DNA of 32,000 nucleotides from the NCBI GenBank assembly GCA_963817635.1, contig CAWFPR010000005.1, positions 737,433 to 769,432 of the forward strand, written 5' to 3'. Made by a program: the position numbers and the translations under genes. This stretch comes from an uncultured Acidobacteriota bacterium. GTDB lineage: Bacteria; Acidobacteriota; Vicinamibacteria; Vicinamibacterales; 2-12-FULL-66-21. This document shows positions 3,184 to 16,564 of this stretch, in pieces (the stretch's first letter is position 1; each line of letters starts with the position of its first letter). The notes beneath the pieces are model-generated. The model searched no databases. It was not told the origin of the DNA and saw only the letters and a program-made list of their open reading frames with translations.

Positions 3184-5550
3184 ATGGAAAACAGGACGCT
3201 GACACCGGAACTGCTCCACAGGATGGACGCCTACTGGCGTGCCGCCAACTACCTGTCGGTCGGCCAGATCTACCTGTATGACAATCCGCTGTTGAAGCGG
3301 CCGCTCACCCTGGCGGACGTGAAGCACATGCTGCTCGGACACTGGGGCACGACCCCCGGGCAGAACTTCGTCTACGTGCACCTGAACCGGGTCATCAAGA
3401 AGTACGACCTCGACATGATCTACGTCTCGGGCCCGGGACATGGCGGTCCGGCTGTTGTGGGTAACACGTATCTCGAGGGCACCTACAGCGAGATCTATCC
3501 GGACATCAGTCAGGACGAGGCCGGCCTTCGCAAGCTCTTCCTGCAGTTTTCCTTCCCCGGGGGCATTCCCAGCCACGCGTCGCCCGAGTGCCCGGGGTCG
3601 ATTCACGAGGGGGGCGAGCTGGGCTACTCGCTCAGTCATTCGTTCGGAGCGGTGTTCGACAATCCCGATCTCGTCGTCGCCTGCGTCGTCGGCGACGGCG
3701 AGGCGGAAACGGGACCGCTCGCCACGGCGTGGCATTCCAACAAGTTCCTGAATCCGGCCACCGACGGCGCGGTGCTGCCGATCCTGCATCTGAACGGCTA
3801 CAAGATTGCCAACCCCACGATTCTTGCCCGCATCGAGCCCGAGGAACTGGAACAGTTGCTTCGCGGCTACGGGTGGACGCCCATCTTCGTCGAGGGGCAC
3901 GAACCGGCACTCATGCACGAGGCGATGGCCGCGGCGCTCGACCGCGCCGTCGAGCAGATTCAGTCCATCCAGAGAAACGCCCGCGTGCAGGGCGACCTCA
4001 CGCGTCCGCGCTGGCCGATGATCGTCCTGAAGTCACCCAAAGGCTGGACCGGGCCGAAAGTCGTGGACGGGCGACAAATCGAGGGCACGTTCCGGGCGCA
4101 CCAGGTGCCACTCGCCGACCCGGCCACTCATCCCGAACACCTCAAACTGCTGGAGAACTGGCTGAGGAGTTACCGCCCGGAGGAGTTGTTCGACGAATCG
4201 GGGCACCTGAAGCCGGAACTGGCCGAACTGGCTCCGAAGGGCGCTCGACGCATGGGCGCCAATCCCCACGCCAACGGCGGCATCCTGCTTCACGATTTGC
4301 AGTTGCCGGACTTCCGCACCTATGCGGTGGAGGTGCCGGCACCGGGAACGCCCGGCATCGGCGACACCCATGTGCTCGGACCTTTCCTGCGCGATGTCGA
4401 ACGGCTCAACGACGCCCAGCGGAATTTCCGGATCTTCGGCCCCGACGAGTCGCTGTCGAACGGCCTGGCCGCGATCTTCGAAGCGACCAACCGTCAATGG
4501 GACGCCGCGACCGTGGCCAACGACGAGTTTCTCGCGCCGGACGGACGCGTGCTGGACTCGATGCTCAGCGAGCATCAGTGCGAGGGCTGGCTGGAGGGCT
4601 ACCTGCTCACCGGGCGACACGGGCTGTTCAACTGCTACGAGGCGTTCATCCACATCGTCGATTCGATGTTCAACCAGCACGCCAAGTGGCTGGAGGTCAC
4701 CTCGCACCTGCCGTGGCGGCGCAAGATTGCCTCGCTGAACTACCTGCTGGCCTCGCACGTCTGGCGGCAGGATCACAACGGCTTCACCCATCAGGATCCC
4801 GGATTCATCGACGTCGTGATGAACAAGAAGGCCGGAATCGTGCGGGTGTACTTTCCGCCGGACGCCAACTGCCTGCTGTCGGTGATCGACCACTGTCTGC
4901 GCAGCCGGCACTACGTCAACGTAGTGATCGCCGGCAAGCACCCGGCGCCGCAGTGGCTGCCGATGGACGCTGCCGTTGAACACTGCGCGGCGGGCATCGG
5001 CATCTGGCCGTGGGCCAGCAGCGATCAGGGCGCTGAGCCAGACGTCGTCATGGCCTGCTGCGGCGACGTGCCCACACTCGAGACGCTCGCGGCCGTGTCG
5101 ATCATGCGGGAGCACCTGCCCGAGCTGAAGATCCGCGTGGTGAACGTCGTGGACCTGATGAAGCTGCGGCCGACGAGCGAGCACCCGCACGGATTGAGCG
5201 ACGCGAGCTTCGACGCGCTGTTCACCAGGGACAAGCCGGTGATCTTTGCCTTCCACGCCTATCCGTGGCTGATTCACCGTCTGACGTACCGCCGCGCCAA
5301 CCACGACAACCTCCACGTTCGCGGATACAAGGAGGAAGGCACGATTACTACCCCCTTCGACATGACGGTGCTGAATGATCTGGACCGCTTCCACCTGGTG
5401 ATGGACACAATCGATCGGTTGCCGCAGACCGGCGAGAAGGGTCAGCGCCTGAAGCGGCAACTCGCGGAAAAGCTGATCGAGCACAAGCAGTACATCGACA
5501 AGCACGGCCAGGACCTTCCGGAGGTTCGGAACTGGAAGTGGCAGGGATGA
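3184..5550 (+). CDS. xfp: xylulose-5-phosphate/fructose-6-phosphate phosphoketolase
   Basis: Intact 788-aa ORF of typical XFP length. Motifs: [66 protein letters not shown] Shine-Dalgarno-like run lies about 10 nt upstream. Confidence 0.96.
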
Positions 5551-6167
5551 GCCTCTACCTGGTTCGACACGGCGAAACGGCCTGGTCGCTCTCGGGCCAG
5601 CACACAGGGCGAACCGATATTCCCCTGACGGCGCGAGGCGAGCAGGAGGCCCGCAGGCTGGCTGCGCTGGTGGGCGCCGTGAGTTTCAGCCGCGTCTTCA
5701 CCAGCCCGCGCCGGCGCGCGCGGCGGACGTGTGAACTTGTCGGACTGGGTGGCGTCGCACACGTCGAACCGGATCTGGCGGAGTGGGACTACGGAGAGTA
5801 CGAGGGGCTGCGCTCCGAGGAGATTCAGCAGCGGCGGCCGGGATGGAACCTCTTTCGCGACGGATGTCCGCAGGGTGAATCGCCCCGTGACGTGTCGGAC
5901 CGGGCCGATCGCCTGATTGCCCAGTACCGGTCGATCGCCGGAGAGGTTGCGATCTTCTCGCACGGCCACTTCGGGCGCGTCATGGCGGCGCGATGGATCG
6001 ACCTGCCGATCAGCCAGGCGCAGCACCTGGTTCTGAGCACGGCGTCAGTGAGCATCCTCGGCTACGAGCACGACCGCCCTGACCCGGACGAGGCGGCGAT
6101 CGTGTTGTGGAACGCCGTGGTGGGCAGCCTGACCGTCGCGCCGCCCGACACGCTTTTCCAGCCGTAA
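5547..6167 (+). CDS. histidine phosphatase family protein (phosphoglycerate mutase superfamily)
   Basis: [12 protein letters not shown]...[10 protein letters not shown] is the RHG catalytic motif, and a second His lies in [11 protein letters not shown] 5547-5549 overlaps the xfp stop TGA 5548-5550 (ATGA). The track ORF begins 9 nt earlier at GTG 5538. Confidence 0.85.
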
Positions 6168-6317
6168 CACCGGCGTCAGACCCCCGGCGTCTGGGGGGGT
6201 GGGGTCAGACCCCGACGACGCGTTCCGGAGTGTGCCCATGCAACCGGCTCGGCCGCCGCGCGGGCATATACTGAACAAATGAGGGAGGAGTGACAAAGGA
6301 GGGACAGGAGACCACAA

Positions 6318-8193
6318 ATGTACAGGTTGCGCGTCAGGGTTGTGCCACTCGCGGCCCTCATGATGCTGTCGAGCGCGGCGGCCGCGCTCGGCCAGACCGG
6401 TCCGATCACCCTCACCGTCGATGCCACCCGGGCGCCGGAGAAGATCCTGCACAGCACGATGGTCATCCCGGTGACGCCGGGTCCGCTGACGCTCTACTAC
6501 CCCAAATGGATTCCCGGTGAGCACGCCGCAAGCGGCCCGATCGCGAACGTCACCGGCCTGAAATTCACCGCCAACGGAAAGACGCTCTCCTGGCAGCGCG
6601 ACACGAAGGACGCCTTCACGCTCCGGGTTGACGTGCCGCAGGGAGCCACCCGCCTCGACGTCGCATTCGACTATCTGGAACCAGGCGCGGGCCAGTTCAC
6701 GGGCGGATCGTCCGCGACGGCCAAGCTCGTGGTGATCAGCTGGAACCAGAACCTGCTGTACCCGGCCGGCCGCCCGCCCAGCAACTGACCTATGACGTGA
6801 AACTGATGCTGCCGTCCGGATGGAAATTCGGCACGGCGCTCCCGACCGAAGGCCAGTCGCGGCGACAGCATCACGTTCAAGCCGGTCGAACTGAACCGGC
6901 TCGTGGATTCGCCCGTCATCGCGGGGCAGTACTACCGCGCGATCGATCTCACGCCTTCGGGAGAATCGGTGCATCACGAGATCGACATGGTGGCCGACAG
7001 CGCCGAGGCGCTGAACATGAGCCCGCAGGTGCAGTCGGGAATGAAGAACCTCGTGATCGAAGCGGCGAGGCTCTTCGGCTCACGCCACTATCGCGACTAC
7101 CACTTCCTCCTCACGCTCAGCGATCACGTCGCGCACTTCGGCCTCGAGCACCACGAATCGAACGACAGCCGGCTGGGTGAACGCGCGCTCCTCTCGCCGC
7201 ACGCCGGCGTGACCGTCGGAGGGCTCCTGGCGCACGAGTATGCCCATTCGTGGAACGGCAAGTTCCGCCGTCCCGCCGACCTGAGCACGCCCTATTACGA
7301 GGCGCCCGAGGAAACCGACCTGCTCTGGGTCTACGAAGGATTGACCGACTTCGCCGGCCCACTCCTCGCGACCCGCAGCGGACTGTGGACGCCGGAGGAG
7401 TATCGCGACTATCTCGCCGGCATCGCGGCCGCGCTCGGTCCGGGCCGGCCAGGCCGCACCTGGCGTCCGCTGCTCGATACCGCGATCGGCGAGCCGGTGC
7501 TCGGCGGCGCCCGCGGCGGGTGGGCGAACTGGCGCCGCGGGACCGACTACTACGATGAAGGCGATCTGCTGTGGCTCGAGGTCGCCACCATCATCCACGA
7601 CCGCACGCGCGGCCAGAAGTCGATCGACGACTTCTGCCACCTGTTCCACGGCGGCGCGAACGCCGGACCCGAATTGAAGACCTATACGTTCGACGATGTG
7701 GTTCGCACGCTCAGCCAGGTGGCGCCGTACGACTGGGCAACATTCCTGCACGAGCGGCTCACGTCCATCTCACCGGAGGCGCCCACGGGCGGAATCGAGA
7801 ACGGCGGGTGGAAGGTCGTATTCACGGCCGAGCCGCAGAAGACGACGGGACGCCGCGCCATCCCGCCCGACTTGTACTCCGTCGGTCTGGACCTGTCCGA
7901 AGACGGCACGGTAAGGGATCGGTTGTCGGCGGTCCCGCGTTCAAGGCGGGGATCACGCCCGGGATGAAGATCGTCGCCGTGGACGACCGCGCCTATACGC
8001 ACGATCGGTTCGAGGATGCCATCCGCAGCCGCACGGGCGCGTCGCAGCCGATTGCGGTCCTCGTCCTCAACGACGACTATTACAAGACCTGCCAGATCGA
8101 CTACCACGGCGGTCAGCGCTTTCCCACCTCGTCCGCGACGCGAGCAAGCCGGACTACCTGGACCAGTTGATCGAGCCGAAGACGACGTCCTGA
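6318..8193 (+). pseudogene. M61 family (glycyl aminopeptidase-like) zinc metallopeptidase with C-terminal PDZ domain; reading frame broken at least 4 times
   Basis: Signal peptide MYRLRVRVVPLAALMMLSSAAAALGQ. Zinc motif HEYAHSWNGKFRRP. PDZ string GGPAFKAGITPGMKIVAVDD. The homology thread moves frame 3->2 (~6775), 2->3 (~6858), 3->2 (~7920) and 2->1 (CCC run 8123-8125), and ends ...HLVRDASKPDYLDQLIEPKTTS* at TGA 8191-8193. The track pieces are 6318..6788, 6797.., 6903..7967 and 7571..8170. Confidence 0.85.
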
Positions 8194-11006: not shown

Positions 11007-11258
11007 GTGCTGGCCGGTCACCTGGAGGCTGCGATGAACGGGATGTTCCTCACCATCGTCGGCCTGTTCTTCAACCGCGTCACGCTCTCGGTACTACAGG
11101 CTCGTGTCTGTCGAGGCGCGCTGCTCTATAGCGTCTTCGCGAACTGGTTCTTCGCGACACTCGCCGGCATCGCCCAGGGTCACGTACCGCCGCCCGAGCG
11201 GCAGGCGCTGGCCGCGATCCAGCCTTCCGGTTGGCTGCCGACGGCGATTCGGCGCTGA
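11007..11258 (+). pseudogene. possible 5'-truncated remnant of a hydroxylaminobenzene-mutase-like small membrane protein
   Basis: GHLEAAMNGMFLTIVGLFFNRVTLS...LLYSVFANWFFATLAGIA resembles the central HLEG-MNG-FL and following transmembrane helices of that family. Only about 100 nt separate it from the upstream gene, so the N-terminal helices are missing. The start is not defined. Confidence 0.25.
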
Positions 11259-11388
11259 ATCGTCCGGCCCCATCGTCTGTCCGCCCGTTCAACCGCGGTC
11301 GCGTCAGGCCGATTACCCATGTATGCCAGCGGCCGGTCGGCACAATTGGGTGCGGCGGTGCCGAAGCGAGCGATTTGGACTCATACCC

Positions 11389-11799
11389 ATGCTGACCTAC
11401 TGTCCCCGGACGATGGGTACAGGCATCCCGACGATCGATGCCCAGCACAAGGAACTCTTCAAGCGCCTCAATCAGCTGTTCGCGCAAATGTCGGTCGGAC
11501 GCGCGACCGACGGCTTGGATGAACTGCTGCTGTTCCTGAAGAACTACGCGGAGTGGCACTTCGAGCACGAGGAAGACTGCATGGCCCGGGCGCAGTGCCC
11601 GGTGCAGGCCGCCAACAAGTCGGCGCACGCCGAGTTCATCAGGATCTTCACCGCGCTCACCGAGCGGCTGCAGAAGGACGGGCCGACGCCGACCATGGTG
11701 ATCCAGGTCGAGAAGCAGTTCAGCGGGTGGATGACCAGCCACGTCGTCAAGATCGACACCAACTTGAAAAAGTGCCTGGAGGCGAAGGCTACGGCCTGA
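11389..11799 (+). CDS. bacteriohemerythrin (hemerythrin-like metal-binding protein)
   Basis: IPTIDAQHKELF, YAEWHFEHEE, SAHAEF and GWMTSHVVKIDTNL supply the His/Glu/Asp di-iron ligand pattern. The start is taken at ATG 11389 (alternative ATG 11413). The longer track ORF from 11104 is GC-driven read-through. Confidence 0.85.
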   Translation: MLTYCPRTMGTGIPTIDAQHKELFKRLNQLFAQMSVGRATDGLDELLLFLKNYAEWHFEHEEDCMARAQCPVQAANKSAHAEFIRIFTALTERLQKDGPTPTMVIQVEKQFSGWMTSHVVKIDTNLKKCLEAKATA

Positions 11800-11909
11800 G
11801 GGCGTCGTCGGGTATGCGGGTAATCGCACCCGTGATGCCGCACAACCGATGAACATCCTTCTATTTGGCGCCAGCGGTCGAGCAGGAACTTCACTGCTGA
11901 CCGTCTATC

Positions 11910-12194
11910 TCATCGCGCGCGGATTTCGAAGCCCAGCGAGAGGATGGCCTTCACCGTTTCAGTGACCGTCGTGCGGTCGTACTGCTTCTCCGACTCGGGC
12001 AACGAGCCATAAGGCACGAGGTCGGGATGGGTCTTCGATGCGTCGTCTCGCTGCGGTCCGTGCACCCATCCTTCCGACATGCGGCGCGCGGCCCAGTGGT
12101 CGTGCACGTTCTCGGAGAGCCGCTCCACCAGTTGCTCGAGCTCCGGCGTCAGTGCGACCGGGCTGGTGTCGATGGTGCGAGGCCGGTACGTCAT
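11910..12194 (-). CDS. stand-alone RyR (ryanodine-receptor repeat) domain protein, 94 aa
   Basis: LVERLSENVHDHWAARRMSEGWVHGPQRDDASKTHPDLVPYGSLPESEKQYDRTTVTETVKAI follows the Pfam RyR consensus (lAe.iHe.Wa...i.eGW.yG..rdd..k.hP.LvPy..Lpe.eK..dr......lk.i). An AAGGAG Shine-Dalgarno lies 7 nt upstream, inside the 13-nt gap after the TIR gene stop. Confidence 0.85.
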   Translation of the reverse strand: MTYRPRTIDTSPVALTPELEQLVERLSENVHDHWAARRMSEGWVHGPQRDDASKTHPDLVPYGSLPESEKQYDRTTVTETVKAILSLGFEIRAR

Positions 12195-12207
12195 CGCGCG
12201 CTCCTTG

Positions 12208-13575
12208 TCAGTCCAGCACCTTGATGATCCGATCGACGATGCCGTCGGCGTTCGAATGTTCCCACGCGCGAATGTACTGGATGTCGGTGAGGTAGGGTGG
12301 CAGGGCCATCTCTTCGCGCGCCAGCTTGACGGGAACCACCCTGAGCTTCTTCGCGTCGTGAGCCGCGACGACGCTTCGAGCTTCGTGCCCGCAGTTGCCC
12401 GATGACAGATACGACGGCGACAGCATCAGGACCGCGATGGCGCTGCGATCGAGCTTCGCGAAGATCTCGTCCATCCACGGCCGGCCCGGCTCGATGGAGT
12501 CCCCGCCGTCGCGATAGTCGAACACCGACTGGAAGCGCCGCCGCAGGGCCGTCGCGATCGGCGCCACCAGGGCTTCGTCCTGGCCGCTGTAGCTGAGGAA
12601 GACGGCTTCCTTGCGCATCGCGGCCTCGCGAAAATACGCCCGCGCCTCTTCCACCGCGCCGATGCGCCGGCCTTCCTGGAGGATCCGGTCGAGCCGTTTC
12701 TGGAACCCGTCGACCAGTTGATCTTCGGTCGTCCAGCGCACGATGTCCTTGCTGTACCCTACGTCGTACGCGCCGTAGAGGCTCCCTTCGAGCGGCGGCC
12801 GGCCCGTGTCTGTGCCGGGACCGTCCGATGACTGCCACGAGAGCCGCAGCGTCGGAATGGCCTGCCCGTGCAGGTACGCGCCGATGCCGGTTTCCGCTGC
12901 CGCCGCGCCCACGTCCGTGACGATCCAGTCCGCGGCCTGGAGCCTGCTGACGAGCCGACCGTCCAGTTGCGGCGGCCACGCCAGCCGTTCGACCTCGATG
13001 TTCGAGGCGCCGGCCATGGACTCGAGCCGCCGGACGATATCTTCCTTGTACCCCTGAGGCGGGAGCAGCAACCCGACCGTTCGGCCGGGTAGCTGCGGGC
13101 ACGTCCGCTCGTACTGCATCGAGACGTCCACGTTCTCGCAGAACCGCTTGAACAGGCTCCGGAAAGCCTCGCGATTCGGGGAGCCGCCGCGGCCCGTCAC
13201 TTCCTTGTGATCGAACGGGCACACGAACATCGACGGCGGGAGCGGGATGACCGGACCGTACCGGCGGTCCACGAAGACGATGGCGGGCGTCCGCCCGCGG
13301 ACCGCGAGGTCGACCTCGAGCCGGAAGTACCGGCTCGCTTCGAGCAGCAACTGGCGGGTCGGGCGTTCGTCTCCCTCGCCGTCATACGGATAGATGCCGA
13401 CAAACGCGTCGGTATCCCGAATCATGCGCTCGAGGCGCGTGACGTTGGTGGATCCCGTGCCCCGGTCCACGTCGAACTGCAGCTCGGCGACCTCGCTGAA
13501 CACCTCGTGAAAATAGGTGTTCACCACGGGCGACTGGTAGCGGTGGCTCAGAAAGGCCTTGAGCGTCAAAGACAT
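12208..13575 (-). CDS. multi-module TIR-domain protein: N-terminal TIR/DUF4062-like module, central nucleoside 2-deoxyribosyltransferase-like module, C-terminal canonical TIR
   Basis: The C-terminal residues 324-455, VFLSYSGQDEALV...SIEPGRPWMDEI...AIAVLMLSPSYLSSGNCGHEA, match the TIR_2 pattern and include the conserved Glu (E398, nt 12382-12384). The start is taken at ATG 13575 (MSLTLKAFLSHRY...). The track ORF extends to 13695, but that leader is Arg/Gly-rich junk. Confidence 0.85.
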   Translation of the reverse strand: MSLTLKAFLSHRYQSPVVNTYFHEVFSEVAELQFDVDRGTGSTNVTRLERMIRDTDAFVGIYPYDGEGDERPTRQLLLEASRYFRLEVDLAVRGRTPAIVFVDRRYGPVIPLPPSMFVCPFDHKEVTGRGGSPNREAFRSLFKRFCENVDVSMQYERTCPQLPGRTVGLLLPPQGYKEDIVRRLESMAGASNIEVERLAWPPQLDGRLVSRLQAADWIVTDVGAAAAETGIGAYLHGQAIPTLRLSWQSSDGPGTDTGRPPLEGSLYGAYDVGYSKDIVRWTTEDQLVDGFQKRLDRILQEGRRIGAVEEARAYFREAAMRKEAVFLSYSGQDEALVAPIATALRRRFQSVFDYRDGGDSIEPGRPWMDEIFAKLDRSAIAVLMLSPSYLSSGNCGHEARSVVAAHDAKKLRVVPVKLAREEMALPPYLTDIQYIRAWEHSNADGIVDRIIKVLD

Positions 13576-13659
13576 GTCGGGTGCCCTGCGCCGGGCCTTA
13601 GACGGTAGCACAGGTTCCGGGGCGCCGGGCCGGGCGCCTCGCCCGTCTCGCGAGGAGCA

Positions 13660-13688
13660 TTGACACCCCGCCCCGCCCTTCGTAGCAT
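13660..13688 (+). promoter_or_regulatory. sigma-70-like promoter candidate for the PIG-L deacetylase gene
   Basis: TTGACA (13660-13665), an exact 17-nt spacer, then TAGCAT (13683-13688), about 58 nt upstream of ATG 13747. GGAG at 13737-13740 lies 6 nt before the ATG. Confidence 0.4.
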
Positions 13689-13746
13689 GAGGCACTTTCT
13701 ATCGAGCGCCGACTCGAGTCCACCATAGGCGCTTCCGGAGCACGCA

Positions 13747-16564
13747 ATGAACCTCAGAAAACATCCGATTGCACTGTTGCTGGCCACATTCGTCGCCGTG
13801 GCTGCCATCCTCATGGGGACGGACCTCGTCAACGGCGGCGTTTCGGCTCAGAACCGGAAGAATTTCTCGATTATCAGCGAGCAAAGCGGCCACGTCGCGC
13901 TTGGGCTGGCCATCCGTAAGCTGGACGTCGCCGGCACCTACATGCAGTGCCCCGCGCATCCCGATGACGAGACGAACCCGCTCTTCGCCCTGTACGGGTA
14001 TGGCATGGGCCTGCGCACGATCGACCTGCAGAACAACCGGGGCGACGGCGGCCAGAACGAGATCGGCCCGGAGCTGTTCCGCGACATCGGCGTGCTGCGT
14101 ACCGCGGAGCTGCTCGCCGCGCACGAGATCGACGGCGCGGAACAGTACTTCACGCGCGCCATCGACTACGGCTACTCCTTCGATCCGCAGGAGGTCATCC
14201 GCAAGTGGGGCCACGACGACATCGTGGGCGACTACGTGCGGCTGTTCCGCACGCTGCGGCCGGAAGTCGTGGTGACGATGAACATCCAGGGGCGCGGCGG
14301 CGACCGCGCGCACGAAGCCCAGACCATTCTCGTGCGCGACGCCTTCCGCGCCGCAGGCGATCCGACGAAATACCCCGAACAGCTGCGCGAGGGGCTCAGG
14401 CCCTGGCAGCCACGCAAGCTGTATTTCTCCGGCGCCGGCATCGTGCAGCCGGGCGGCGAGCGGACCTCGCCGGCGCACGTCGCGCGCATCGACACGGCGG
14501 CGTACGATCCGCTCCTGGGCCGGACCTACGCCGAGATCGGGACCGACGCGCACGGCAACCACAAGTGCCAGGGCACAGGCGGGGTGCCGCCGCTGCTCGG
14601 AGTCGTGGGCGGCCGCGGCCGTGGAGGCCGGGGTGGGCCGCCGGCGCCCGCTGGACGGGGAGGTGCGCCAGGCGGCGCGCGCGGCGGCGCGGTCTACACC
14701 CTCGTTGACACGACGATACCGGGCGAGCAGGACAAGGACGAGACGTCGTTGTTCGATGGCATCGACGTCAGCGTGAAGGGGCTGGCCCATTACGCCGGGT
14801 CCGCGCCTCCGGCTGCCCTCACTACCGGCCTCGCCGCGATCGCGGACGCCGCGTCCGCCGCGTCCCGTGCATTCGACGGAGGCAACGACGCTGGCACGGT
14901 CGCGCCGATTGCCACCGGGCTGACGGCCGTGCGCTCGCTCCGCGGCCAGCTCGCCTCGATGGGATTGTCAGACGATGCGCGCTACGAGATCGACTTCCGG
15001 CTCGAGACCGAGGAGGCGGACTTCCAGGATGCGCTGCTGGCGGCCCACGGCCTGACGTTCGGTGCCGTCGCGAACGACGGCCTCATCATCGCGGGCCAGC
15101 CGGTGCAGTTGACCGTTGCGGCGGTCAACCGAGGAGCGGCCGACGTCACGGTGCGTGACGTCGCCATCGCTGGCTTCGACCGCCCGGGCGCGTGCGCGCC
15201 GGGGCCGATCGCTACCGACGGCGTGTTCACCTGCGAATCGACCGCCACCGTGCCGGCCGGCGCGAAGCCCACCGAGCCGTACTTCACGGACAACTACTGG
15301 AGCCACCCGGAAAACCAGGCGATCTACCGGTTCGATCCATCCGTGCCGTTCGGCGTCCCGTTTGCGAAGACGCCGTTTCGCGCGACCGTCCACCTGACGG
15401 TCGGCGGCGTTGACGTCACGAAAGAGCTGCCGTTCGAGTATCGCTACGTGAAGGATCTCTATTTCGGCGACAAGCGGATGGAGCTGACCGTCGTGCCGGC
15501 CTTCTCGGTGGAGGCGACGCCGCGCCTGGCGATTATCCCCGCCGGGGCCGCGGCGACCACCCGGGCCACGACGCGCGAGATGTTCGTTGCCGTCACCAAC
15601 GGGACGAAGGGCCCCGCGGACGCGACCGTCGTCACTGACGCTGCCGGCCGGCTGGAGCGCCTCGCCGGTCTCGGCGCCGCTGCACTTCGACAACGAAGAC
15701 GAATCGCTCTCGGCGCGCTTCGTCGTCACGGCGCCCGCGCAGGTGAAGACTGGCGACTACACGGTGACGGCGACGGTCCGCTCGGCCGCGACCGGCGCGC
15801 AGACCTTCGCCAGCGGCTACCAGGAGATTGAGTACCCGCACATCGAGCGCCGCCAGGTGATCAAGCCGTCCGCCACCGAGGTGAAGGTCGTGGACGTCAA
15901 GACCGTGCCCGGCCTCAACGTCGGCTACATCGTCGGCGTGGGCGACCAGGTGCCGCCGGCAATCGAGCAGCTTGGGGGGAAGGTGTCGTTCATCGACACG
16001 AACGAGCTGGCGTGGGGCGATCTGTCGAAGTACGACGTCATCATGACCGGCGTCCGCGCCTACGAGCGTCGCGACGACCTGCGCGCCTACAACAAGCGGC
16101 TCATCGATTACGCGGCGGCTGGCGGGACGGTGATCGTGCAGTACAACAAGATGGAGTTCAACCAGGCGCAATACGGACCCTATCCCGCCACCGTCGGACG
16201 CGACCGCGTCGCGGACGAGACCGTGCCGGTCAAGATCCTCGTGCCCGGCCATCCCGTGTTCAACTACCCGAACAAGATCGGGCCGGCCGCCTGGGCCAAC
16301 TGGGTGCAGGAGCGCGGGCTCTACTTCCTGGGTGAGAAGGACCCCAAGTACGTGGATCTGATCTCCATGACCGATTCGTTCCCCGACAACCCGGGCGAGA
16401 AGCTCGGATCGCTCGTCGAGGGCAAGATCGGGAAGGGCCGCTGGCTGTACCTGGGCCTCGGACTGTGGCGCCAGCTCCCTGCGGGGACGCCCGGCGCCTA
16501 CCAGTTGCTGGCGAACCTGCTGGCGCTGCCCAAGGCTCCCGGGTCCTCCGCCGCGATGCGGTAA
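13747..16564 (+). CDS. large secreted PIG-L/LmbE-family deacetylase with C-terminal GATase1/ThuA-like region; one frame break
   Basis: N-terminal transmembrane/signal segment. PIG-L motif CPAHPDDETN, then GGDRAHEAQ. The C-terminal region DVIMTGVRAYE...AAGGTVIVQYNK follows. The homology thread passes from frame 1 (13747..15831) to frame 2 (15587..16564) at about 15630 (GPADATV / LTLPAGWSASPVSAPLHF). Confidence 0.8.

Follow-up and report, generated by a model that had tools for sequence, protein, structure and literature searches.

In type VIII Thoeris, the TIR protein ThsB is paired with ThsI, which joins a CMP-hydrolase-like domain to tetratricopeptide repeats (TPR), and canonical cyclic ADP-ribose (cADPR) serves as the signal (Yirmiya et al. 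2025). A TIR and a TPR-S protein also make up the BcTir/Tpr system (2023 preprint), and, according to the 2025 Thoeris survey, it was Aravind and colleagues who predicted the role of the TPR in TIR signalling (Yirmiya et al. 2025). Among phage proteins with a ryanodine receptor (RyR) domain, gp78 of Mycobacterium phage DyoEdafos (RyDEP) is an inverting glycosidase that opens 2′cADPR and 3′cADPR to ADP-ribose (ADPR), with H75 and D117 as catalytic dyad, W78 stacking on the adenine, and H100 contacting the phosphates, and its ADPR product feeds phage NAD+ resynthesis (Lopez Rivera et al., PMC13232231). Eight other phage homologues were tested, six of which bound 2′/3′cADPR without cleavage, and the two that were characterised are nanomolar sponges (PMC13232231). 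Similarly, gp68 of Pectobacterium phage CB1 (RyR Tad) binds 3′cADPR at 43 nM, as well as 2′cADPR and cADPR, via ligand contacts at H129/W132, K147/H154, and K170/D171 (10.64898/2026.06.04.730250). At the R12 site of animal ryanodine receptors, binding of ATP and adenine-containing ligands has been reported (PMC13232231; 10.64898/2026.06.04.730250). Binding or hydrolysis of cADPR isomers by the RyR fold is therefore known, for phage anti-defence proteins only. Here, we analyse a locus in a stretch of 32,000 nucleotides (nt) from an uncultured Acidobacteriota bacterium (contig CAWFPR010000005.1, positions 737,433 to 769,432; hereafter the window), in which a gene for a TIR protein is followed on the same strand by a gene for a protein that is essentially one RyR domain.

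The TIR gene (12208..13575, minus strand) encodes a three-domain protein of 455 amino acids (aa), a ThsB-like candidate signal generator as judged from its open reading frame (ORF), more than 300 homologues, an AlphaFold model, and its ratio of nonsynonymous to synonymous divergence (dN/dS). The ORF starts with the ATG at 13575 and ends with a TGA at 12210-12208 (minus strand); an alternative in-frame GTG start at 13695 would lengthen the protein to 495 aa, and its homologues begin at the position matching MSLTLKAFLSH, i.e., at the ATG at 13575. Following a spacer of 13 nt (12195..12207, minus strand; CAAGGAGCGCGCG), the RyR gene (11910..12194, minus strand) encodes a 94-aa protein with a single RyR (Repeat12-type) domain, recognised via Pfam and PDB sequence matches. 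The spacer contains the Shine-Dalgarno sequence AAGGAG (12201-12206, running from 12206 to 12201 on the coding strand), which ends six nt upstream of the RyR ATG, an arrangement indicating probable co-transcription and coupled translation of both genes. A promoter and terminator scan revealed no terminator-like sites in the 11700-13900 region. This gene order, with its 13-nt gap and AAGGAG motif, had been claimed in an earlier reading of the DNA letters (the original prediction), and the ORFs, the junction, and the Pfam assignments agree with it.

We propose, with about even confidence, that the TIR protein is a Thoeris-like signal generator and that the co-expressed RyR protein binds or cleaves the TIR product as a dimer, acting as a buffer or off-switch. 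The two genes would then form one operon and a minimal Thoeris-like module for NAD+-derived signalling. Its larger protein would be a ThsB-type enzyme, in which two N-terminal α/β domains might sense or assemble and the TIR domain (with E398) would be an active cyclase converting NAD+ into a cADPR-type nucleotide, i.e., 2′cADPR, 3′cADPR, or canonical cADPR (which of these isomers cannot be told from sequence). The 94-aa RyR protein, made from the same transcript, would form a homodimer mimicking the two-repeat R12 domain, bind the TIR product in a pocket composed of H31, W34, H56, and D73, and then either sequester this product or hydrolyse its glycosidic link to linear ADPR. By analogy with the ring nucleases of type III CRISPR, the RyR protein could in this way fix the threshold for activation, curb signal leakage, and return the system to rest. 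We infer that its role is damping rather than reception, and that the signal is answered either by an unlinked effector or by the TIR protein acting as effector through NAD+ depletion.

The candidate enzyme activity resides in the C-terminal TIR_2 domain (aa 325-446; 12238..12603, minus strand; Pfam TIR_2, E=9.8e-21). Its glutamate E398 (codon 12382-12384) is invariant among 20 aligned homologues and aligns with the Glu of the WCxxE catalytic motif of Cat1 and ROQ1, confirming the conserved catalytic Glu of the original prediction. The AlphaFold model of the TIR protein (pLDDT 87.5, pTM 0.80) comprises three α/β domains, the C-terminal one of which matches solved TIR domains in Foldseek (e.g., AbTir, 7uxu, TMt 0.81). 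AbTir is a cyclase, and the window TIR domain resembles it in fold. The TIR gene has a dN/dS of ~0.18. Among the TIRs tabulated in the supplement to the 2025 Thoeris survey, one assigned to the '4TM SLOG' configuration shares 37% sequence identity (E=2e-25) with the window TIR domain; we found no product given for it. A BLASTP comparison of the window TIR with the validated Pseudomonas-scaffold type VIII TIR revealed no similarity (E=6.5).

The RyR protein matches Pfam RyR (PF02026) over residues 3-92 (E=1.6e-33), covering 90 of the 91 model positions. In PDB sequence searches, it matched B. thetaiotaomicron 3NRT (E=1e-26) and animal RyR repeats (E=1.5e-18 for the best single repeat, and E down to 1.8e-63 for whole chains), and it is ~45% identical to animal RyR2 repeat 1 over 89 residues. 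In an alignment with RyDEP gp78 (39% identity over 51 aa), the RyDEP residues H75, W78, H100, and D117 fall on H31, W34, H56, and D73 of the window RyR (codons at 12102-12104, 12093-12095, 12027-12029, and 11976-11978, respectively, minus strand). These residues of the predicted pocket are all invariant across 26 bacterial stand-alone RyR proteins. The original prediction regarded bacterial RyR domains as functionally unassigned, which is out of date given RyDEP and RyR Tad (PMC13232231; 10.64898/2026.06.04.730250). Its guess that the RyR protein might sense or soak up an ADP-ribose-type nucleotide made by the TIR is now supported by the biochemistry on these phage homologues. The window RyR protein is nearer to animal RyR2 repeat 1 than to phage RyDEP, an observation relevant to where the animal R12 domain came from.

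Both genes have hundreds of homologues, and the closest relatives of the window genes occur in metagenome-assembled genomes of Acidobacteriota. The TIR-RyR pair was found at five loci of related Acidobacteriota (i.e., the window, L120, L119, L033-35, and L025), and since the window and L120 are syntenic, these loci provide four distinct flanking contexts. The TIR and RyR proteins diverged in step, with identities to the window proteins of 95% and 93% in L120, 76% and 69% in L119 (where MOSC, caspase-like, and Ser/Thr kinase genes lie in the flanks), and 73% and 73% in L033-35 (flanked by NHL and peptidase M14). The gaps between both genes measure 13, 17 (L119), or 118 nt (L033-35) in orthologous pairs. 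At ~68% identity, L025 has an opposite-strand ORF (~7384-7770) between the TIR and RyR genes; its TIR gene is split over two frames (L025:5812-8221), which is suspected to be an assembly frameshift, and a second TIR gene lies upstream (4778-5866, minus strand). Synonymous divergence (dS) is similar for both genes and the dN/dS values, including those of the RyR gene, are 0.15-0.28 in three orthologous pairs, and the two genes are therefore co-inherited and both under purifying selection. The genes flanking the orthologous pairs are metabolic or miscellaneous, and L119, L120, and L033-35 have no third gene in common that is conserved beside the pair.

When the 32 genome loci of the TIR family were searched with a hidden Markov model of the RyR subfamily, an RyR ORF was present at only one of them, and a 65%-identical TIR relative (L001/L121) proved to be without an RyR gene. 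A fixed partnership of RyR with the whole TIR family was rejected on this count: the pairing is clade-specific within that family and constitutes no fixed two-gene system. The co-occurrence that the original prediction had named as a test was recovered at five loci and with TIR genes of at least five architectures (see below), and did not extend to the whole family or place the pair in a defence island. Such rarity within the TIR family, together with the presence of a TIR or TPR-S gene at only about a third of RyR loci, would suit a chance adjacency of unrelated genes. We nevertheless consider chance hardly credible, as the pair was kept in four flanking contexts with matched divergence, its gaps can be as small as 13-17 nt (with a Shine-Dalgarno sequence within the gap in the window), TIR genes are enriched ~eight-fold beside RyR genes over a TIR-rich control, and the TIR and RyR families are biochemically linked (PMC13232231; 10.64898/2026.06.04.730250).

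The tight operon with its small downstream gene and the co-inheritance of both genes would also suit a toxin-antitoxin-like pair, in which the RyR protein restrains the TIR NADase by protein-protein contact. The conserved RyR residues, however, are those of the nucleotide pocket (a protein-interface surface was not looked for), and close relatives of the TIR protein (L001/L121) persist without RyR. Moreover, the same RyR subfamily partners unrelated TIR architectures and TPR-S proteins that lack a TIR, which is hard to reconcile with restraint by direct contact. We regard such a pair as very unlikely, and nothing specific turned up in favour of the antitoxin-like role that the original prediction had offered as an option.

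The remainder of the TIR protein consists of an N-terminal α/β domain (aa 1-130; 13186..13575, minus strand), which is family-specific and possibly TIR-like in a divergent way, and a less conserved middle α/β domain (aa 161-320; 12616..13095, minus strand) delimited from the AlphaFold secondary structure. The mean pairwise identity is 0.55 for the N-terminal, 0.38 for the middle, and 0.53 for the TIR domain. Invariant residues of the N-terminal domain include F8-L9-S10-H11, D37, E87, R93, and D103, and its motifs follow a TIR-like order, i.e., an FLSH strand, an F-V-D strand, a DAFVGIY strand, and a SRYFRLE helix with the invariant E87. The N-terminal domain matched neither Pfam nor PDB sequences, and a PDB sequence match was likewise not found for the middle domain. 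With a confident model of the N-terminal domain, Foldseek returned weak generic matches, the best of which was the TIR of TIR-STING (9lmq, TMq 0.58), with the SARM1 and RPS4 TIRs also among them. HHalign gave no signal for the N-terminal and middle domains against the TIR domain. A profile of the N-terminal domain yielded 304 matches among 1.84 billion representative proteins, nearly all of which were either proteins of ~450-480 aa with an identical architecture or shorter ones that are presumably fragments; none of the seven matches of atypical length that were scanned with Pfam carried an RyR or TPR-S fusion. Among the families that the original prediction had named for checking, Pfam found TIR_2 and RyR, while DUF4062 and nucleoside 2-deoxyribosyltransferase did not appear at E<=1; the latter two were rejected for the N-terminal part of the TIR protein, for which a PDB profile match was also lacking. 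From the structural model, the N-terminal domain is possibly a divergent TIR-like fold. With its invariant E87 and a conservation equal to that of the TIR domain, it may conceal a second TIR-like site for catalysis or ligand binding. We infer that the N-terminal and middle domains together act as a family-specific module for sensing or assembly.

The TIR family comprises more than 300 full-length homologues (43-76% identity, ~455-480 aa) with one fixed architecture, distributed over Acidobacteriota, Chloroflexota, Bacteroidota, Proteobacteria, Verrucomicrobiota, Planctomycetota, and Myxococcota. Its sole other recurrent neighbour is a ~460-aa protein matching MAP3K_TRAF_bd and TPR-S, encoded at eight of the 32 genome loci. 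In six of these it is directly adjacent (L008:4536-5975, L011, L012:7556-8935, L020:7567-8901, L023:4593-5978, and L031), and in L006 and L007 it lies within ~5 kb. The TPR part of this protein matches ASK1 (E=7e-6) and its N-terminus is weakly similar to the Rcl/DNPH1 N-glycosidase, an architecture that appears ThsI-like (i.e., like the type VIII Thoeris effector) and also BcTpr-like. For partners encoded at related loci, neither PADLOC nor NCBIfam produced named-system matches. The ThsI-like proteins would suggest canonical cADPR as the TIR product, which is countered by the '4TM SLOG' resemblance of the window TIR; as the window TIR domain is unrelated to the validated type VIII TIR, this assignment was rejected as unsafe.

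Since TIR proteins of this family mostly occur on their own, and the profile search found the N-terminal domain essentially only within the TIR-protein architecture, the TIR protein might also be a self-contained sensor and NAD+-depleting effector. The RyR protein would then convert the very stable cyclic ADPR by-products to ADPR so that NAD+ can be recycled, or sense ATP or other adenine nucleotides, in a non-signalling role. Along the same line, RyDEP releases ADPR for phage NAD+ resynthesis (PMC13232231), ATP and adenine ligands have been reported at the animal R12 site (PMC13232231; 10.64898/2026.06.04.730250), NUDIX genes lie beside some RyR genes, and the genomic context of the pair is one of housekeeping. 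NAD+ salvage genes, however, were not found with the pair in the window or at the orthologous loci, and the association of RyR with TPR-S sensor-effectors and several unrelated TIR architectures points to signalling rather than salvage. We therefore hold a salvage role to be quite unlikely.

This association became apparent from the neighbourhoods of stand-alone RyR genes. Stand-alone RyR proteins that share 60% identity or more with the window RyR are abundant, and all seven that could be placed on long contigs adjoin TIR and/or TPR-S genes. At L036, L037, and L124-126, the RyR gene is followed by an abhydrolase-TPR-S-TIR_2 gene (with a 4-nt gap) and then by a ThsB_TIR gene. At L127-129, it (6001-6288) precedes a TIR_2 gene (6368-7558) and a gene for an NB-ARC-TPR-S-patatin protein (from 7555), whereas at L122-123 it is convergent with a TPR-S-patatin gene. 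Both kinds of three-gene operon were without a named system match in PADLOC or NCBIfam. Aravind and colleagues reportedly ascribe to TPR-S the sensing of NAD+-derived signals. Since the three-gene operons already hold a putative producer (TIR) and a TPR-S sensor-effector, the RyR protein appears as an extra part in them, which fits a regulator.

A scan of 80 metagenome RyR loci provided 56 close same-strand neighbours, which were counted by Pfam family. TIR_2 was the commonest (6), ahead of RyR (5), TPR-S (4), and TrkA_N (4), and further counts included the STAND-type NTPase domains AAA_16 (4) and nSTAND_NTPase5 (3) as well as DUF4062, NUDIX, and STAS (2 each); a DUF4062-STAND protein was also among the RyR neighbours. 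The TIR partners of the RyR subfamily encompass TIR-STAS, TIR-WG-Sel1, short TIR proteins, abhydrolase-TPR-S-TIR with ThsB_TIR, and a TIR followed by NB-ARC-TPR-S-patatin, so that this subfamily adjoins TIR genes of at least five architectures. In local seed searches, 11 of 103 immediate RyR neighbours were TIR genes, compared to 4 of ~290 control genes, which corresponds to an ~eight-fold enrichment, even though the control loci are already rich in TIR genes. Of the 80 RyR loci, 28 contained a TIR or TPR-S gene somewhere, as did 12 of the 27 that span at least 4 kb. On viral contigs, RyR genes are 33-58% identical to the window RyR, and a TIR gene is adjacent in one of 15. The recurrent partnership is that of RyR with TIR and TPR-S, and it ties the cassette to Thoeris-type signalling. 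That stand-alone bacterial RyR proteins in general are host regulators of TIR-derived cADPR signals encoded in cis, as glycosidase off-switches or sponges, is a more tentative proposal, to which we give somewhat less than an even chance.

Some neighbourhood features lie outside this partnership. At L087:2-427 and other RyR loci, TrkA_N proteins (NAD-binding, of the K+-channel regulator type), NUDIX hydrolases, and TIR-STAS fusions recur beside stand-alone RyR genes, and the partner set of RyR is therefore broader than TIR and TPR-S. At L036:1-2352 and L037:288-3243, the RyR/TPR-S-TIR operons adjoin thymidylate synthase, thymidylate kinase/HMUDK_hel, MazG, and dCTP-deaminase-like genes and lie near an M78 peptidase-HTH pair; these surroundings may represent a cluster for DNA base hypermodification or what is left of a prophage.

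RyR domains also occur fused to the N-terminus of TPR-S proteins (L078:6001-8316, L092:5953-8295, L093:86-2365, L101:163-2523, and L066:921-2495), four of the five fusions ending in a C-terminal adenylate/guanylate cyclase domain. In these proteins, a putative cADPR-type pocket may be wired to a second cyclic-nucleotide output. The N-terminus of TPR-S-cyclase proteins and the proximity to TrkA_N are positions typical of ligand sensing, and the gene adjoining the TIR in Thoeris normally encodes a signal-sensing effector (Yirmiya et al. 2025). Moreover, the homologous animal R12 is a ligand-binding regulatory part of a channel (PMC13232231; 10.64898/2026.06.04.730250). The RyR protein might on these grounds be a receptor. 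Its product-bound dimer would then switch on an unlinked channel, enzyme, or TPR-S protein, or feed back on the N-terminal or middle domains of the TIR protein itself, and the RyR protein would represent a new Thoeris-like type in its smallest sensing form. Against this speak the absence of an output module from the 94-aa single domain, the absence of a conserved third gene with the pair in four contexts, the presence of a TPR-S sensor-effector in the three-gene operons already, and the finding that all characterised stand-alone or phage members are sponges or hydrolases (PMC13232231; 10.64898/2026.06.04.730250). On balance, a receptor is rather unlikely. Under the damping reading that we prefer, the RyR-TPR-S-cyclase fusions would resemble self-limiting fusions of a sensor with a signal degrader.

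Several points nevertheless weigh against a signal-damping module. Neither RyR nor TPR-S is near the TIR gene at 23 of the 32 TIR-family loci, and the TIR protein may therefore act alone in depleting NAD+, in which case degradation of a by-product would regulate nothing. A linked effector gene was found in none of the four flanking contexts, which leaves a damper without a visible target incomplete, and the locus lies outside any defence island, judging from its window neighbours. Binding and cleavage by the window RyR are inseparable on the basis of its sequence, given that RyR Tad, although a sponge, retains the His and Asp of the hydrolase, and the predicted pocket might also admit another adenine nucleotide as ligand. 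In addition, the survey logic of Yirmiya et al. would make a gene beside a TIR an effector, not a regulator.

In the window, the pair is convergent with a hemerythrin gene (11104-11799, plus strand) and divergent from a PIG-L deacetylase gene (13747-15831, plus strand), in line with the functionally unrelated surroundings noted in the original prediction. Farther neighbours include RF3, DUF2490, M61 peptidase, phosphoketolase, and glucodextranase. This is a housekeeping context, neither a defence island nor a prophage, and a mobile element or recent transfer was rejected as the window displays no GC shift, flanking repeats, phage genes, or transposase genes. The window genes also bear out the claim that ThsA-like, helicase, nuclease, and STAND neighbours are missing. 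The same holds for the claimed lack of a match to a named defence system, an option rejected since PADLOC produced weak TIR-domain matches only (ThsB1 with 6e-5, SAVED_TIR, and PDC-S66) and none for RyR, while NCBIfam contained nothing specific for either protein.

Systems of a TIR with TPR-S are already known, whereas a host-encoded RyR partner of a TIR is new to the sources surveyed, being absent from both 2026 RyR preprints, PADLOC, and NCBIfam. RyR is not mentioned in the text and supplements of the 2025 Thoeris survey, as far as these extend (with a part of Table S1), and the Aravind-group eLife papers make no mention of a bacterial RyR role. The undescribed module of the original prediction consequently stands with respect to its host RyR partner, and has to be narrowed in that the cassette is linked to Thoeris-type signalling and its pairing is clade-specific.

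TIR-made cADPR isomers are unusually stable. To our knowledge, no enzyme that destroys them was known before the 2026 phage work, and we know of no described host-encoded terminator or buffer for Thoeris-type signalling. If our proposal is true, a host RyR protein co-expressed with the TIR would fill this terminator gap, much as ring nucleases do for type III CRISPR. If stand-alone bacterial RyR proteins in general are host regulators of TIR-derived signals, they would be the first known host-side signal terminators for Thoeris-type immunity. They would then also be a likely source of phage RyDEP and RyR Tad and ancestral to the animal versions, and the RyR-TIR-TPR-S network would be a forerunner, in prokaryotes, of the way cADPR is linked to the ryanodine receptor in animals. 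With its patatin, hydrolase, protease, and cyclase domains, this network joins a phage evasion domain, an ASK1-type sensor scaffold, and the animal R12 domain, and with it a long-standing question can be put to the test, namely whether RyR is a target of cADPR-type ligands and, if so, where they act. Even if unrelated to defence, the pair would still be a compact and tractable bacterial case of cADPR-type second-messenger signalling.

Like Thoeris at large, the locus encodes a TIR protein in which the catalytic Glu is present and additional domains may serve in sensing. It differs in that an adjacent effector combining a sensor with a toxic output is replaced by a 94-aa RyR protein without an output module, and in that defence genes surround neither the window pair nor the orthologous pairs. 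With type VIII Thoeris and BcTir/Tpr it shares a TIR family in which a ThsI-like protein is adjacent or close at eight of 32 loci. In the window, however, the partner position is held by RyR instead of an N-glycosidase and TPR-S protein, and the TIR itself is not homologous to the validated type VIII ThsB (resembling the '4TM SLOG' TIR instead).

The likeness to ring nucleases is one of concept. In type III CRISPR, the host ring nucleases (Crn1-3, Csx3) and their viral counterpart AcrIII-1 are small degraders of the signal, and the ring-nuclease fold is also used by viruses as an anti-defence protein, with cyclic oligoadenylate as the messenger. A small signal degrader encoded beside the generator and switching immunity off would be the common principle; the folds are unrelated and the messengers differ, making this an analogy and not a homology.

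The phage proteins are related by domain. RyDEP and the window RyR are both small stand-alone members of PF02026 whose H/W/H/D pockets correspond one to one, and the expected ligands of the window RyR are likewise TIR-made cADPR isomers. RyDEP, however, has 138 aa and is encoded in a phage NAD+-resynthesis operon as an anti-defence protein, whereas the window RyR has 94 aa without an N-terminal extension, is encoded on a bacterial chromosome 3′ of a TIR gene in one operon, and is presumed to be a host self-regulator. With RyR Tad, a dimeric sponge, it shares the RyR/R12 fold and the His/Trp, His, and Asp of the pocket, but RyR Tad is a two-domain protein from an anti-signalling hotspot in a phage, as opposed to a bare RyR domain beside a host TIR. 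The window RyR therefore has the domain and the pocket of the RyDEP/RyR Tad family while being encoded by a bacterium rather than by a phage. Finally, the animal R12 domain is related through RyR2 repeat 1 and has pocket residues that are conserved across the family, and where the animal protein embeds tandem repeats within a 5000-aa Ca2+ channel, the window encodes a free-standing single repeat that is predicted to dimerise.

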